NCBI GenBank assembly: GCA_937906475.1
Contig: CALCZA010000054.1
Coordinates: forward strand, 29,810-93,809
Origin: an uncultured bacterium
Lineage (GTDB): Bacteria > Planctomycetota > UBA1135 > UBA2386
DNA length: 64,000 bases
Reading direction: 5' to 3'
Position numbers and translations under genes: made by a program. This document shows positions 58,123 through 64,000 of the stretch, piece by piece (position 1 is the stretch's first letter; every line of letters begins with the position of its first letter). The notes under the pieces are model-generated. The model was not told where the DNA came from, did no database searches, and was given only the letters and a program-made list of their open reading frames with translations.

Positions 58123-58563
58123 ATGCCAAAGCCGACGAAGCCCGACCTGGCCAAATACCGGAAAGTCCTGAAGCAGCAACTCGCAACCTTGAAGGGCGAT
58201 GTTGGCTCAATGCGTGACGAGGCGCTGCGCGCGTCCGATCAGGATGCCTCAGTCGACCACTTGGCCGACCAGGGCACCGACAACTACGACCAAGGCTTTA
58301 TGCTCGGGTTGATCGAGAACGAGGAAGAAACGATCAAACTCATCGAGGAAGCCGTCGACCGCATCGATGGTGAGGGCGACTGGGAATACGGTCAGTGCCC
58401 ACTGTGCATCGAGTCGGCGCAAGAAGCGGCGGCCAAGGCTGGCAAGAAGTCGGCCAAGAAAGGCGACTCCTGGATCCTGAAGGCACGCCTCGAGTACTTG
58501 CCTTGGGCTCGATACTGCGTCAAGCATCAAGAAACCGAAGAGCGCAACCGCGAAAGCGCGTGA
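58123..58563 (+). CDS. dksA: DksA/TraR family transcription factor
   Basis: Coiled coil with HLADQGTD, AVDRI..YGQCPLC, RLEYLPWARYCVKH. Confidence 0.85.
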   Translation: MPKPTKPDLAKYRKVLKQQLATLKGDVGSMRDEALRASDQDASVDHLADQGTDNYDQGFMLGLIENEEETIKLIEEAVDRIDGEGDWEYGQCPLCIESAQEAAAKAGKKSAKKGDSWILKARLEYLPWARYCVKHQETEERNRESA

Positions 58564-59201
58564 GTGCTGCCGCCAAGACCTCGGACGGCAGGGAAGTCGG
58601 TGTCACTTCGACGCCGGTTCCCGAACCGAAGGGATTTGGCGGCAAGCTACTGTTCTGGGTGCCGTGGCCGATCCTGGTCGCAGTCGACTTGTGGAGCAAA
58701 CACGCTGTGTTTGCCTTCATGGCCGAGCGCCATCCTGCCTCCATCGAAGTGAATAGGCCTGGCTACGAGGTGTTTTCCGGCGCGGTCAGCCTTGACCTCG
58801 TGACCTGGGGGAACACCGGCACGATCTGGGGACTGTTCCAGGATGGCACAGCCGTGTTGATGGTGCTGCGTTGCATCGCGCTGATCGGCCTGTTGTGGTT
58901 CGTGCGCACGACGTCGCGCAGTGCCCGCCTGCAACTGACCGTGCTGAGCCTCGTCTTCGCCGGTGCCGTCGGCAACCTCTACGATAACTTTGTCCGGGCG
59001 GATCGCTCGGTGCGTGACTTCCTGCACTTTACGGGTTCTTGGCCGTGGGGATGGGAGTTCCCGGCCTTCAACGTGGCTGACTCGTGCATCACGGTCGGAG
59101 CCATTGGCCTGTTCGTGCTGATGTGGCGGGAGGATCATCGGCAGAAGGATCCGGACAGCCCCTCAAAAGCCACCCCTGCCAACGAAGCGAAGGTATCCTA
59201 A
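58560..59201 (+). CDS. lspA: Lipoprotein signal peptidase II
   Basis: DLWSK, NTG, GAVGNLYD, VRDF, PAFNVADSCI. Confidence 0.92.
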   Translation: MSAAAKTSDGREVGVTSTPVPEPKGFGGKLLFWVPWPILVAVDLWSKHAVFAFMAERHPASIEVNRPGYEVFSGAVSLDLVTWGNTGTIWGLFQDGTAVLMVLRCIALIGLLWFVRTTSRSARLQLTVLSLVFAGAVGNLYDNFVRADRSVRDFLHFTGSWPWGWEFPAFNVADSCITVGAIGLFVLMWREDHRQKDPDSPSKATPANEAKVS

Positions 59202-59248
59202 GAGTTCGCCCCGATCGCTCCGGTTGCGACCCTCCATTATCCGATCGA

Positions 59249-60220
59249 ATGACTGTGCTCGAAACCAACCTTGCAGGCCTCGAACTCGATAACCCGGTGC
59301 TCAGCGCCTCGGGCACGTTCGGGTCCGGCTGGGAAGGGCGGCAGTTTTCGGATCTCTCTACGGTTGGCGGCCTGGTTAGCAAGACGGTGACCCTCAAGCC
59401 GCGCCCTGGTAACCCGCCGCCACGGATTCTTGAGACGCCTTCGGGCATGCTGAACGCGATTGGGCTCGAGAATAAGGGCTCCGAAGTGTTCCTGCGCGAC
59501 TCCTTGCCGCGCATGCAAGAGTTGGCCGAGAGTGGCCAGAAAGACGGCAAGCGCGGCCCACGCGTCATCGTCAATCTCGGTGGTAGCACCGCTGAGTTGG
59601 TCGAGTTGACCAAGCGCTTCTGCGCTGCCGGTGTCGACGCCCTTGAGATCAACTTGTCGTGTCCGAACGTCGCCCACGGGACCCGTTCGTCGACGGACCC
59701 GGCTTTGACCGAAGAAGTCATCGCAGCGGTCAAGTCGGTGGCGACGGTGCCAGTGTTCGCCAAGTTGACCCCGAACATCACCGACGTCGTGCCGATCGCT
59801 GTCGCCGCGCATCGCGGTGGTGCCGACGCCGTGACGTTGATCAATACGCTGGTTGGCATGGCCGTCGATTGGCGGCGCAAGAAGCCAGTGTTGGGCAACA
59901 CCACCGGCGGCCTGTCCGGTCCGGCGATCAAGCCAGTCGCGTTGCGCATTGTCTACCAGGTTCGTGCTGCGTTGCCCGACCTGCCGATCGTCGCAGTGGG
60001 GGGCGCGCACTCGGCCGAGTGTGTTCTGGAGTTTGTTTGCGCGGGTGCCAGTGCGGTGCAGTTTGGCACGTCGCTGTTCTCCGATCCGACGTTGATGGTG
60101 CGCGTGGTCAACGATCTGCGCGATCATCTAGGTGAAGCGGACACGAGCATCCATGAACTGCGCAGCGCCATGCACGAGAGCGCAGCGCGCATCAGCACCC
60201 CCGGAGGCGCCTCCCGATGA
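59249..60220 (+). CDS. pyrD: Dihydroorotate dehydrogenase, family 1B catalytic subunit
   Basis: SASGTFG, NAIGLEN, EINLSCPN, AKLTPN, INT, GGLSGPAIKP. Confidence 0.95.
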   Translation: MTVLETNLAGLELDNPVLSASGTFGSGWEGRQFSDLSTVGGLVSKTVTLKPRPGNPPPRILETPSGMLNAIGLENKGSEVFLRDSLPRMQELAESGQKDGKRGPRVIVNLGGSTAELVELTKRFCAAGVDALEINLSCPNVAHGTRSSTDPALTEEVIAAVKSVATVPVFAKLTPNITDVVPIAVAAHRGGADAVTLINTLVGMAVDWRRKKPVLGNTTGGLSGPAIKPVALRIVYQVRAALPDLPIVAVGGAHSAECVLEFVCAGASAVQFGTSLFSDPTLMVRVVNDLRDHLGEADTSIHELRSAMHESAARISTPGGASR

Positions 60221-61098
60221 GACTGTCGGCGTTGACGGAGCAGATTGTCGACCAAGCCGTGTCGATCTATCAAGACCTGGCCTATGGCTCGGTCGTGCCA
60301 AAGAAGCGCGCGCAACCTGCTGGTGATGGTGATGGCGTGCTCGGCATGTTCCATAAGGAGCACGTCGAAACGGTGCCTGGCCACACTTGCAGTCGCTACA
60401 GCATGCGACTTGGCAACCGCAACTACCCGTTCATGAAGCTCCTGCTGCAGGAACATCTGATCGCGGGCGAGTTCTTCTTCGGAGTCGACACCCATGACCA
60501 GATGGATATCGGCCCGGGATTTCCCGACTACGAGCAGTGGCTGGCGGTGCGCAAGTTCAACGGCGAGTTGAAGCGACGCATCGAAGAGAGCTTCGAATAC
60601 GCCGGCTTGGACACCGCCGCGGTGGTGCGCCGATTGGTCGTCGAGTCGTGTGGCGACCAGGGCAAGCCATGCCGTGGGTTGGTGCTGATCGTCGATGACG
60701 AAGAAGACCTGGCCGCCGCCGTCGAAATACTGATGAAGCGCAGCGGCTTCCGCACCTGCACCGTGCACGATGGCAAGAGCGGCATCGTCGCTACCCGGGA
60801 ATTGATGCCGGATCTCGTGCTGCTCGACTACGAACTGCCAGAACTTGATGGCCTCAAGGTCATTGAGCAGTTGCGCGCCGACGAATTGACGCGCGATATC
60901 CCGATCCTGCTCAACAGCTCCGCGCGCATGAGTATGGCCAATATCCAAAAAGCGGACGGCTTCCTCAGCAAGCCGTTCCCCGAGAGCTTGCTCAACGAGA
61001 TGATCGATCGCGTGCTCAGTAAGCGCAATCGATCCCGCGATGGTCATACGGCCCCTACTTCCGCCACGAGCGGTGACGGTGGAGGGTCTGCGTTGTGA
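60217..61098 (+). CDS. Unknown N-terminal domain fused to a receiver domain
   Basis: C-terminal REC: IVDDE, PDLVLLDYELPELDG, FLSKPF. Confidence 0.88.
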   Translation: MRLSALTEQIVDQAVSIYQDLAYGSVVPKKRAQPAGDGDGVLGMFHKEHVETVPGHTCSRYSMRLGNRNYPFMKLLLQEHLIAGEFFFGVDTHDQMDIGPGFPDYEQWLAVRKFNGELKRRIEESFEYAGLDTAAVVRRLVVESCGDQGKPCRGLVLIVDDEEDLAAAVEILMKRSGFRTCTVHDGKSGIVATRELMPDLVLLDYELPELDGLKVIEQLRADELTRDIPILLNSSARMSMANIQKADGFLSKPFPESLLNEMIDRVLSKRNRSRDGHTAPTSATSGDGGGSAL

Positions 61099-61394
61099 GC
61101 GAACGCCAAAAGAACGTGTCATCCCCGCGGGCCACCGGCTTTGTGTCGGCGGTGTTGTTGGTGGTGCTACTGGCAACCAGTGGCTGGCCGTGCGGAGCGC
61201 ATGCGCTGGTCGACAACACCTACGTCACTAGTTGTGAGAGTAGTCAGACCGAAGTCGGTCGTGTGGTTGCCGGCAGCCTGCCGTGTGCTGTGCATGAAGT
61301 GGTGCGCGAGGCGGTCCAGTTGCCGCGCGTCCGATCGCGTGCGCAGCGAGTTGATAGCTGGGGCTTGCCGCCAGCGCGTGCACCGACCGCCTAG
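61095..61394 (+). CDS. Small exported protein upstream of secA; candidate translation-arrest (monitoring) peptide
   Basis: GTGA overlap with the previous stop, signal peptide ending AHA, C-terminus WGLPPARAPTA. Confidence 0.65.
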   Translation: MSERQKNVSSPRATGFVSAVLLVVLLATSGWPCGAHALVDNTYVTSCESSQTEVGRVVAGSLPCAVHEVVREAVQLPRVRSRAQRVDSWGLPPARAPTA

Positions 61395-61546
61395 CCGCAG
61401 AGTCGTGCATTCCTTCGCTCTATTTTCGGGGGCCGACCAGCGTCGGCTCTTGGGAGCGAACCCCTCTGGATCGCCGTGCTGCGCGCGATCAGGCATCGGC
61501 TTCCTAGAGACGCTGCTGCTAGCTCCCACAAACACATCCGTCTGAT

Positions 61547-64000
61547 ATGAAATTTGATTTTGGCTCTATCCCGACCCGCATTGGCAAAGCCTTGCAGGGT
61601 GTCTTTGGCTCCGCCAACAAGCGCGCGCTGACTCAATACAACTCGATCATCAAAGCAGTCAACGGTCTCACAGAGTGGGCCGAGGGCCTGTCGCAAGAAG
61701 AGATCCAAGGCGAAGTCGTCGAGATGAAGAAGTTGGTGCAGGAGGAGGCGCTGACGCTCGACGATGCGATGCCAAAGATGTTCGCTCTGACGCGTGAGGC
61801 CGCGGGCCGCGCGATGGGCATGCGTCACTTCGACGTGCAGTTGCTCGGGGGCGCCGTCTTGCACCTCGGCAAGATCGCTGAGATGTCGACTGGTGAAGGC
61901 AAAACGCTGGTCGCGACGCTGGCGGCATCGCTCAACGCACTGAGCGGTAAGGGTGTTTTCGTCGTCACGGTCAACGACTACTTGGCCAAACGTGACCGCG
62001 ACTGGATGGCGCCGGTCTACGAATACCTCGGCCTGAAGGTCGGCGCGGTGCAAGGCAACATGCCGCCGCACTCGCGCCAAGAGCAATACAACTGCGACAT
62101 CACCTACGGTACGAACAACGAGTTTGGCTTCGACTACCTGCGTGACAACATGAAGTGGAAGGCCGAGGAGCAGGTGCAGAAGGACCTGAACTTCGCCATT
62201 GTCGATGAAGTCGACTCGATCCTTGTCGATGAAGCGCGGACGCCCCTGATCATCTCCGGCGAAGGCGAGGGCACGACCGATCGTTTTGTCATGGCTGACC
62301 GCATCGCGCGTCAACTGAAGGTTGACGAGCACTTCGAAGTCAAACTCAAGGAGCAGCAGTGCGTGCTCAGCGAGGACGGCATTGCTCGCGCCGAGAAACT
62401 TGTTGGCGTCGACAGCTTCTACAGCGATCCGGCACACATGGAGTGGCCGCACCTGCTCGAGACGGCGCTGCGGGCGCACCACATCTACGAGAAGGATAAG
62501 AACTACGTCGTCGTCGAGGGCAAGAACCCGGAAGGGCAACCGCAACCGCCGGAAGTCGTCATCGTCGATGAGTTCACCGGTCGTCTGATGCCGGGACGTC
62601 GTTGGAGTGACGGCCTGCACCAGTGTGTCGAGGCTAAGGAAGGCCTGCCGCCGCGTGAGGAGAACCGCACGCTGGCTACGATCACGCTGCAGAACTACTT
62701 CCGGATGTTCGACAAGTTGGCCGGCATGACCGGCACGGCAATGACTGAAGCGGCCGAGTTCTCGCGCATCTACGACTTGGATGTCGTGCAGGTGCCGTGC
62801 AACCGTCCGAACACGCGTGTCGACATCAACGACCAGATCTTCCTCGATGAGAAGAGCAAACTCGATGCGATCGTCGATGAGATCAACGCCGAGTGTAAGG
62901 GTGGTCGTCCCGTGCTGCTCGGCACGACGTCGATCGCCAAATCGGAGAGCATCTCCGAAGCACTGAAGGCTGGCGGCATCAAGCACAACGTGCTCAACGC
63001 TAAGCAGCACGAACGCGAAGCTGAGATCATCACCCAGGCTGGCCGTAAGGGTGCCGTCACCGTGGCGACCAACATGGCTGGTCGTGGCACCGACATCGTG
63101 CTCGGCGGTAAGCCCGATGCACTGTGGGAAGCGCAGTGCAAGCAGAAGGGGCTCGAAGCCGACTCGGCCGAAGCCAAGCAGTTGCTCGAAGAACTGTTGG
63201 TTCAGTGCAAGGCGGAACAGCTTGAGGTGCTAGACCTTGGCGGCCTCTACGTGCTCGGCACCGAGCGCCACGAAGCGCGCCGTATTGACAACCAGTTGCG
63301 CGGCCGTTGTGGCCGTCAAGGCGACCCGGGTCAGACGAAGTTCTTCCTGAGCTTCGATGACGACCTGATGCGCATCTTCGCGCGCGATTGGGTTCGCACG
63401 ATGATGGAGCGCATGGGCCTGAAGTCCGGCGAAGTTATCGATAGTCCGATGGTGACGCGCGGTATCGCCAAGGCCCAGAAGAAGGTCGAAGCGCGCAACT
63501 TCGACATGCGCAAGCACCTCATCGAATACGACGAGGTGATGGATAAGCAGCGCAAGTTTATCTACACGCAGCGCCAGGACGCGCTCGAGTTCAAGGGGCT
63601 ACGCGACAAGATCCTCGGCATGTTCGAGGAGGCGCTCGAGCCAATTGTCAGCACCTATTCGGCCGACAAGGACAAGCCGATCGACTACGAGGAGATCCGC
63701 AAGTGGATCTACCACCGTGTTGACGACGGCTTGGACTTGACCGGCTTGGAAGAGGCGCCACGCGCAACGGTGTTCCAGTGGATCATGGATCGCGTCGAGA
63801 AGCTTCACGACGTGCGCGCCGAACTCTACGGCGACGATTGGGACGACGTGCAGCGCTTCTTGATCCTCGAGACCATCGACAACAAGTGGAAAGACCACCT
63901 GTATGCGATGGACGTGCTCAAGCAGGGTGTCGGCCTGCGCAGCTACGCGCAGGTTGATCCGAAGAACGAGTACAAGAAGGAAGGCTTTGAGAAGTTCGGC
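61547..64000 (+). CDS. secA: Preprotein translocase ATPase SecA (3' end outside the window)
   Basis: ATG at 61547; RHFDVQ, EMSTGEGKTL, TVNDYLA, FAIVDEVDSILVDEARTPLIISG, ATNMAGRGTDI, RRIDNQLRGR. Confidence 0.98.
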   Translation, partial: MKFDFGSIPTRIGKALQGVFGSANKRALTQYNSIIKAVNGLTEWAEGLSQEEIQGEVVEMKKLVQEEALTLDDAMPKMFALTREAAGRAMGMRHFDVQLLGGAVLHLGKIAEMSTGEGKTLVATLAASLNALSGKGVFVVTVNDYLAKRDRDWMAPVYEYLGLKVGAVQGNMPPHSRQEQYNCDITYGTNNEFGFDYLRDNMKWKAEEQVQKDLNFAIVDEVDSILVDEARTPLIISGEGEGTTDRFVMADRIARQLKVDEHFEVKLKEQQCVLSEDGIARAEKLVGVDSFYSDPAHMEWPHLLETALRAHHIYEKDKNYVVVEGKNPEGQPQPPEVVIVDEFTGRLMPGRRWSDGLHQCVEAKEGLPPREENRTLATITLQNYFRMFDKLAGMTGTAMTEAAEFSRIYDLDVVQVPCNRPNTRVDINDQIFLDEKSKLDAIVDEINAECKGGRPVLLGTTSIAKSESISEALKAGGIKHNVLNAKQHEREAEIITQAGRKGAVTVATNMAGRGTDIVLGGKPDALWEAQCKQKGLEADSAEAKQLLEELLVQCKAEQLEVLDLGGLYVLGTERHEARRIDNQLRGRCGRQGDPGQTKFFLSFDDDLMRIFARDWVRTMMERMGLKSGEVIDSPMVTRGIAKAQKKVEARNFDMRKHLIEYDEVMDKQRKFIYTQRQDALEFKGLRDKILGMFEEALEPIVSTYSADKDKPIDYEEIRKWIYHRVDDGLDLTGLEEAPRATVFQWIMDRVEKLHDVRAELYGDDWDDVQRFLILETIDNKWKDHLYAMDVLKQGVGLRSYAQVDPKNEYKKEGFEKFG

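Follow-up and report, generated by a model that had tools for sequence, protein, structure and literature searches.

Does the short open reading frame directly in front of secA in an uncultured bacterium of the Planctomycetota encode a peptide that monitors protein export from within the ribosome, and which of its residues would halt translation? The question is raised by a stretch of 64,000 nucleotides (NCBI GenBank assembly GCA_937906475.1, contig CALCZA010000054.1, positions 29,810 to 93,809 of the forward strand; GTDB lineage Bacteria; Planctomycetota; UBA1135; UBA2386), referred to below as the window, in whose coordinates all positions are given. The upstream open reading frame (uORF) occupies 61095..61394 on the plus strand and consists of 99 codons with a GTG start and a TAG stop at 61392-61394. 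Its translation reads MSERQKNVSSPRATGFVSAVLLVVLLATSGWPCGAHALVDN...RVDSWGLPPARAPTA (in segments, MSERQKNVSSPR-ATGFVSAVLLVVLLATSGW-PCGAHA...RVDSWGLPPARAPTA) and ends in WGLPPARAPTA-stop, and the secA ATG follows at 61547, 152 nt further on. The GTG overlaps the TGA stop of the preceding gene (GTGA), which was called as an open reading frame at 60217..61098 (+) and carries a receiver domain (Pfam Response_reg, residues 156-263, 6.3e-18). A first-pass annotation, made from the raw sequence, had described the 99-residue frame, its tail and its distance from secA; coordinates, translation and Pfam analysis bear this out. The range that it gave, 61095-61546, begins correctly at the uORF start and ends at the last base of the spacer, whereas the uORF itself stops at 61394. 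Our analysis suggests that the uORF is probably a translated, conserved secA uORF acting as a Sec-monitoring arrest peptide (a 'monitoring substrate') of the class published as uA_LPPP. That it is a translated conserved gene we regard as nearly certain, and, judged on the combined evidence, it is likely an arrest peptide.

Two sets of relatives were used for the comparison. For the first set, the SecA N-terminus was searched in 41 related genomes, of which 38 matched and 30 loci were kept; for the second, an alignment of the upstream receiver protein was searched against a species-representative genome collection, giving 80 loci, the relevant ones being labelled as metagenome-assembled genomes of Planctomycetota, with one 'uncultured Phycisphaerales'. 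Duplicates were removed, and loci L079 (alternative frame) and L087 (receiver-gene C-terminus) were left out as false matches to the RAP pattern. In 39 distinct loci the interval between the receiver gene and secA was found to hold an open reading frame ending in RAP followed by 0-10 residues. All share one layout: an N-terminal hydrophobic segment, then a tether of some 67 residues, and at the end P-x-x-R-A-P plus 0-10 residues. The start/stop overlap of the NTGA type with the upstream gene was present in 33 of 38 related loci, and the three genes are arranged like an operon. In L087, which belongs to a lineage devoid of the uORF, the receiver protein itself ends ...VEAPPRAP-stop, 133 nt before secA; this tail probably arose by chance.

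A count independent of the feature was obtained by grouping non-redundant loci by SecA N-terminus type. Among loci with the window's SecA type, 36 of 37 contain a frame of at least 50 amino acids that runs from the receiver stop and ends before secA. When the longest such frame was taken blindly, it ended in RAP in 31 loci; in the remaining five, the window among them, the RAP frame lies beside a longer frame in another phase. Loci with other SecA types never had a RAP frame (0/28). Receiver gene and secA are 412-667 nt apart where the uORF type occurs; of the 28 loci of other types, 27 have a distance of 19-310 nt and L060 has 1,944 nt. The chance level in this genome is low, with RAP in the last 15 residues of 508 of 45,259 open segments of at least 60 amino acids (1.1%). 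In the same genome a search for paralogues, for example before secDF or yidC, found the tail [LWIVR]PxxRAP combined with a hydrophobic segment solely at this locus. By similarity, 26 matches were obtained among 5.8 billion proteins, all 26 ending in RAP and all unnamed or 'hypothetical'. A profile of the 39 sequences, run against 1.84 billion cluster representatives (50% identity), gave 117 matches at E up to 0.001, of which 113 have the RAP tail, a count not fully independent since the profile itself includes RAP. Of the four remaining matches, two are truncated fragments and two are long, unrelated proteins.

Conservation within the uORF is concentrated in its last residues. In the RAP-anchored profile, arginine, alanine and proline are each found in 39/39 sequences and are encoded by six, four and four different codons, respectively. 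The nucleotide alignment likewise varies at third positions inside the motif. An invariant RAP with synonymous codon turnover therefore points to selection on the peptide. An independent MAFFT alignment gave M1, G30, R95, A96 and P97 as the sole invariant columns. Relative to the arginine, the predominant residues among the 39 are proline at -3 (37), leucine at -4 (31), glycine at -5 (26), proline at -2 (25), proline or alanine at -1 (23 and 12) and arginine at -13 (29) and -17 (27); the two arginines and a proline at -14 are semi-conserved. Proline at -3 was also present in 110 of the 113 database representatives. Mean pairwise identity is 0.73 over the eight-residue core and 0.22 over positions -23..-6. 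In the window, the conserved tail L76-P97 (LPRVRSRAQRVDSWGLPPARAP) lies at 61320..61385 (+) and its core is G90-L91-P92-P93-A94-R95-A96-P97, with R95 at 61377-79, A96 at 61380-82 and P97 at 61383-85. The end of the frame, T98-A99-TAG, occupies 61386..61394 (+). The first-pass annotation had set conservation of the tail in relatives beforehand as the test of its proposal, and the tail is conserved across the 39 loci and the 113 representatives.

While RAP is invariant, the proline block before it varies. LPPP occurs in 11 of 39 loci (13 with any xPPP), in 13 of 26 close database matches and in 35 of 113 representatives (38 with xPPP), and RAP is present in all. LPPA is the form in the window, in its nearest relatives and in 11 of the 26 close matches; congeners of the window carry GLPPPRAP, and further cores read LPAP, LPRP, LPQP, WPPA and LPLA. 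At L014 and L023 the proline block is shortened or altered (TGLPPRAPTA, one residue fewer, and WLAQPRAPGS) and RAP is kept. Protein P0024 ends ...GLLPARAPPRAPTNGR, a duplication that gives a true RAPP and then RAPT (RAPPRAPT). The residue after RAP was threonine in 19 of the 39 loci, followed by aspartic acid (6), glycine (5), serine (3), cysteine (2) and alanine (1), with a stop in three; RAP-T is thus common to 19 related loci, and in the window it stands two residues before the stop. In the 113 representatives the counts were threonine 55, aspartic acid 27, stop 10, serine 7, cysteine 5, glycine 5, proline 2 and alanine 2. The emphasis that the first-pass annotation placed on RAP-T fits these family-wide data better than the published name LPPP, found in about one third of members.

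Upstream of the tail, position is conserved and sequence is not. Residues 1-12 form a basic n-region (net charge +2 in a hydropathy scan) ahead of an H-region of 19 residues, A13-W31 (ATGFVSAVLLVVLLATSGW, 61131..61187, +), with a mean Kyte-Doolittle value of 3.1 over 12 residues; by hydropathy it would serve as a Sec signal sequence or an N-in/C-out anchor. An N-terminal hydrophobic segment was found in 39/39 homologues. The basic N-region and hydrophobic core that had been predicted are therefore present. The predicted AHA cleavage site exists as A35-H36-A37 and is kept in the nearest relatives only (CEAHA), others having ESQA, ETQP, VDAQH and the like. The tether proper, residues 32-75 (61188..61319, +), had been called a low-complexity spacer, which it is not to any marked degree: its sequence is unconserved (mean pairwise identity 0.11) and its length is conserved. 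From the end of the H-region (W31) to the proline of RAP (P97) there are 66 residues in the window, with a median of 67 across loci and values of 63-74 in 35 of 39; for the 113 representatives the median is again 67, with an interquartile range of 66-68. Tether length is kept within about two residues while the sequence drifts to random. Synonymous turnover, a conserved stretch of tunnel length and a fixed-length tether of free sequence are together, as far as sequence can tell, what marks a nascent-chain element; this pattern of conservation fits neither a folded protein nor an RNA motif.

The class to which the uORF would belong has been described. Fujiwara, Tsuji, Yoshida, Takada and Chiba (2024, Nat Commun 15:2711, PMC10987492) searched over 30,000 genomes for uORFs that precede secA, secDF or yidC, encode a signal and have a conserved C-terminus. 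Their uA_LPPP set groups secA uORFs whose final 15 residues contain LPPP/XPPP, from three orders of Planctomycetota (Phycisphaerales, UBA1161 and WQYP01); of its 52 sequences, 45 have LPPP and 50 a signal. One homologue was reported to arrest translation with Bacillus subtilis components, with an arrested fraction (fAP) of 1 in PURE and a translation arrest index (TAI) of 22.4 in vivo, and to stall weakly in Escherichia coli (fAP 0.51, TAI 1.59); the authors raised the possibility that the E. coli stall in vitro is an artefact caused by the lack of EF-P. The arrest product was lowered by L110A, P111A and P111A/P113A, and the toeprint placed Pro112, the second proline of L110PPP, in the P site with a proline in the A site (PMC10987492). 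The main text of that paper describes the LPPP motif as unrelated to known arrest peptides. The name 'uA_LPPP' was not found beyond it in the literature searched, nor is LPPP mentioned in the available part of a subsequent study of RAPP-like sequences (PMC12992588).

The window uORF resembles uA_LPPP in being a short planctomycetotal frame of no assigned family directly before secA, with an N-terminal signal or transmembrane segment (by hydropathy), a spacer of more than 30 residues (66, W31 to P97) and an L-P-P-(P) element in the last 15 residues. It differs in that L91-P92-P93-A94 is not LPPP/XPPP and would escape the published motif search, and in that the family invariant is RAP, three residues past the published stall site. 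It is filed here under uA_LPPP because phylum, gene context, signal, spacer and LPPP position match and because congeners carry GLPPPRAP; membership is most likely. By sequence the window uORF is an LPPA-RAPT form homologous to the LPPP bearers of a class known since 2024. Since uA_LPPP was published in that year, with one homologue stalling ribosomes, the novelty claimed by the first-pass annotation ('candidate new') is unsupported.

Comparison with other arrest peptides supports the kind of layout that had been proposed, that of SecM and ApdA/ApdP, with signal, tether and RAP-type tail before secA, and the export-monitoring mechanism proposed with it is the one accepted for the class. SecM of E. 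coli (FxxxxWIxxxxGIRAGP) is also a signal-bearing secA uORF with an R-A-x-P-like core few codons before the stop and an export-monitor logic. Unlike SecM, the window uORF is non-homologous: its tail RVDSWGLPPARAPTA lacks the SecM motif, the uORF matches no family in Pfam or NCBIfam at E up to 0.1, it has RAP-T rather than RAGP, its leader has no Shine-Dalgarno sequence, and no start-sequestering hairpin of the SecM kind was predicted in the window leader. Published tether medians are 71 for short SecM and 54 for MifM (PMC10987492); the tether here, at about 67 residues, is closer to short SecM. Like the window uORF, ApdA and ApdP (RAPP) and the RAPP-like RQH peptides are encoded by uORFs of Sec genes, carry a signal and have an R-A-P core at the C-terminus. 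The RQH query motifs include RAPT, RAPD, RAPS, RAPG, RAPC and RAP* (PMC10987492), and the RQH definition (a RAPP-like C-terminal motif in a signal-bearing uORF of secA, secDF or yidC, with at least three uORFs per order) describes the present family. ApdA and ApdP strictly need proline in the A site (PMC7897499), whereas the window has Thr98 after RAP, and proline stands there in 0/39 loci and 2/113 representatives. The closest parallel in the stalling step is ApcA (RAPG; Sakiyama et al. 2021, NAR 49:1550, PMC7897499), in which R-A-P are likewise the last three nascent residues before a small, non-proline residue and upstream tunnel residues matter. ApcA is unlike the window uORF in having no homology to it outside RAP, in being actinobacterial and in preceding yidC as a proposed YidC substrate, whereas here secA follows.

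These comparisons bear on where the ribosome would stall. ApcA holds proline in the P site and glycine in the A site, and its arrest survives proline, cysteine, asparagine, threonine, serine, aspartic acid or alanine in the A site and is lost with other residues (PMC7897499); in structures of RAPP peptides, RAP occupying the P site prevents peptide-bond formation (PMC10951233). In our family the residue after RAP falls within the ApcA-permissive set {P,C,N,T,S,G,D,A} in 36/36 loci and 103/103 representatives that are not at a stop, and the next position does so in 22/36 against a background of 0.50, counts that are inflated by the relatedness of the sequences. Residues beyond a terminal stall escape amino-acid selection, so the functional stall would lie at or after RAP, or there would be two sites. 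The PURE toeprints were made without EF-P, and a ribosome held at PPP therefore cannot report a later site. From the sequence pattern, we put a native stall at RAP, as the site or one of them, at close to an even chance. The stronger proposal is that the whole uA_LPPP family is a RAP-type arrest peptide, stalling natively with RAP in the P site and T/D/S/G/C or a stop in the A site as in ApcA, and that the mapped site after LPP is an EF-P-sensitive upstream pause; this is tentative, and we hold it slightly less probable than its denial. If it is true, the LPPA of the window would be a natural, fully functional 'P113A' form, the family would join the RAPP-like superfamily, and the tether of 66-68 residues would be a force ruler for a substrate of Sec and not of YidC.

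The proposed sequence of events is as follows. Translation of the uORF would start by coupling to the receiver-gene stop at the GTGA overlap, and the N-terminal signal, residues 13-31, would emerge and engage the Sec translocon. At G-L-P-P-A-R-A-P-T, about 22 conserved residues in the exit tunnel and the peptidyl-transferase centre would block peptide-bond formation. The P-site tRNA would most likely carry R95-A96-P97 and the A site Thr98-tRNA; T98 is accordingly the candidate A-site codon for a stall of this ApcA-like kind. An earlier pause after LPP may precede it. Ongoing export would release the stall by pulling on the tether, whose length is fixed at about 66 residues, whereas at low export capacity the stall would persist and secA output would rise. 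That the arrest peptide raises secA when export fails is, in our judgement, only a little better than an even proposition.

Several results weigh against this reading. The GC content by codon position is 0.68/0.56/0.69 in the uORF and 0.63/0.35/0.80 in secA, which is not typical of coding sequence; composition is uninformative as a coding test here, and the case for a gene therefore rests on comparison. The invariance of RAP is partly circular, as the frames were chosen by the RAP pattern, a bias that the SecA-type grouping, the 26-protein search and the MAFFT alignment reduce and do not remove. Arrest has been reported for one published homologue with heterologous ribosomes, and the window uORF is a candidate. 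The probable identity of the family with uA_LPPP, like the presumed presence of RAP in the published members, is argued from phylum, context, signal and LPPP position. The published toeprint sits after LPP and not at RAP, and the window has alanine at that A-site position; since P111A/P113A stalls less, the LPPA form could simply be weaker. On the side of the RNA, no conserved structure was found from the uORF tail to secA (RNAalifold, 18 relatives, -2.46 kcal/mol), and the seven pairs of the consensus all lie within motif codons. Opening the secA start is predicted to cost 3.5 kcal/mol in the window and 4.4 kcal/mol at the median, so that the start would already be open. Placing a ribosome footprint at the stall in constraint folding of 39 leaders changed the opening energy by a median of -0.1 kcal/mol, and changes above 2 kcal/mol occurred in 5/39 loci and in 7/117 control placements. 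Contigs from RNA libraries, described below, cannot prove a single transcript, as such libraries can contain DNA.

The results were also weighed under other explanations. A chance frame in GC-rich DNA, or a conserved RNA or DNA element in place of a peptide, would agree with the atypical codon-position GC and with the longer alternative-frame ORFs that overlap in five loci; the open frame and motif are kept over 39 loci and 113 representatives with synonymous changes, no RNA structure is conserved and the alternative frames are not conserved either. Codon turnover, SecA-type counts, alignment and database profile effectively refute this explanation, to which we give next to no weight. A small exported or membrane-anchored protein, whose C-terminus acts after release (for example in binding or sorting) with neither stalling nor control of secA, would account for the signal or anchor segment and for the label 'hypothetical protein' given by gene callers. 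It accounts poorly for conservation limited to the last 22 or so residues, an exit-tunnel length, with about 11% identity elsewhere, for conservation that is highest in the three residues just ahead of a very short, variable end, and for the fixed position before secA, the constant tether and the stalling of ribosomes by a homologue of the published class. We consider it very improbable.

More serious is the published reading left unchanged, in which an EF-P-sensitive pause after LPP is all there is, RAP is kept for a reason unrelated to stalling and the LPPA of the window is weakened or inactive. The toeprint at Pro112 and the mutations L110A, P111A and P111A/P113A speak for it, as does the near invariance of proline at -3. 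It has to contend with the full LPPP/xPPP being present in just 13/39 loci and 38/113 representatives while the downstream RAP is invariant through synonymous turnover, with toeprints that come from EF-P-free PURE, and with the weak polyproline stalling of LPPP by itself in E. coli (PMC4176338); we hold it unlikely. The last alternative keeps the arrest peptide and dispenses with RNA unmasking: the stalled complex would tether the secA message at the membrane or shield the leader from Rho and RNases. It sits well with the lack of a conserved hairpin, with the predicted accessibility of the secA start and with a ratio of C to G in the spacer of 1.24 at the median, against 0.93 in the secA coding sequence. 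SecM also localises SecA synthesis. For ApcA, ApdA and ApdP, too, Sakiyama et al. found no hairpins that sequester a Shine-Dalgarno sequence (PMC7897499). The alternative loses force from the best 78-nt C/G windows, which are no more extreme in spacers (median 1.52) than inside secA (1.59), and from the absence of an intrinsic terminator-like site in the uORF-secA spacer. We regard this alternative as possible and the likeliest of the four, if still on the unlikely side.

Returning to the Sec-monitoring arrest peptide and its link to secA, the weakest step of the model, the leader between the two genes (61395..61546, +, 152 nt) gave little to build on. Unmasking of the secA start in the manner of SecM was tried and rejected, the 39 folded leaders showing no stall effect beyond controls. 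The single-sequence fold of the window leader was no better than shuffles (z = -0.63); thermodynamic predictions for leaders as GC-rich as these are weak evidence in both directions. The C-over-G bias of the spacer is too weak as evidence for Rho. As no leader structure, terminator or Rho signal could be tied to secA, we commit to the role of the peptide as a monitoring substrate and not to one cis mechanism; the cis route may be leader remodelling, protection from termination or decay, or membrane tethering of the secA message. In contigs from four marine metatranscriptome runs, three bridge the junction of receiver gene and uORF, three run from the uORF stop into the spacer and one runs from the spacer into the secA start. 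Coverage excludes 61680-62050 and other parts, gaps that are uninformative. These contigs are consistent with co-transcription of the receiver gene, the uORF and secA.

Further features of the leader and its transcripts were recorded. At position 61496 the window has T and contigs of three RNA-library runs have C, presumably a difference between strains. The last 30 or so nucleotides of the spacer are G-poor in the window (61515-61546) and in its near relatives (loci L002-L017 and L035-L038), and the secA leader there lacks any Shine-Dalgarno-like sequence (..CCCACAAACACATCCGTCTGATATG). In family members at a greater distance (L019-L023, L046-L050), purine-rich stretches precede the ATG (GGAAGAG, GAGGATGAG, AAGGAAGA). 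The word GCATTCC occurs in 12 of 39 spacers (61408-61414 in the window), either just past the stop of the uORF or 9-30 nt upstream of the secA start; this count equals the maximum among shuffled spacers and may mean nothing.

The uORF is real, conserved and expressed-looking. Export-sensing arrest peptides are few and hard to find, sharing no overall sequence similarity, and the present case suggests that a reading of raw sequence alone can recover one. The planctomycetotal class is broad, with 113 cluster representatives at 50% identity. What comparison adds to the published description is that RAP and not LPPP is the family invariant, that the residue following it matches the A-site tolerance of ApcA, and that tether length is held nearly constant. 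If the RAP-centred reading were confirmed, a motif supposed to be unique would fold into the RAPP-like mechanism, and a search with P-x-x-RAP would yield roughly three times the members found with XPPP. Control of secA here apparently does not pass through a SecM-style hairpin, as far as prediction goes, and the same question arises for most of the newer arrest peptides. The RAP-centred reading with its fixed tether is worthy of a bench test, and it is not a new category.

The genes around the uORF complete the locus. Downstream, secA (61547..64000, +) runs past the end of the window and matches Pfam SecA_DEAD (2.3e-120), P-loop_SecA, SecA_PP_bind and SecA_SW. Two alternative-frame ORFs lie over the uORF, at 61141-61545 (+, 134 aa) and 61167-61535 (-, 122 aa); they look like shadow ORFs of GC-rich DNA, and their lengths and ends vary among relatives. 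The N-terminal 154 amino acids of the receiver protein matched no Pfam family; comparison shows a highly conserved N-terminal domain of about 150 residues (invariant RLGN..YPFMK...E...VD.HD) fused to the receiver domain. This gene directly precedes secA in many lineages of Planctomycetota, those devoid of the uORF included (loci L001-L087), and may have a part in controlling secA or export. Upstream of it, on the same strand at 58395-60220, are genes for signal peptidase II (lspA; Peptidase_A8, 6.2e-28) and dihydroorotate dehydrogenase (DHO_dh, 4.3e-72). With both lspA and secA nearby, the receiver gene and the uORF are thus flanked by two export genes.

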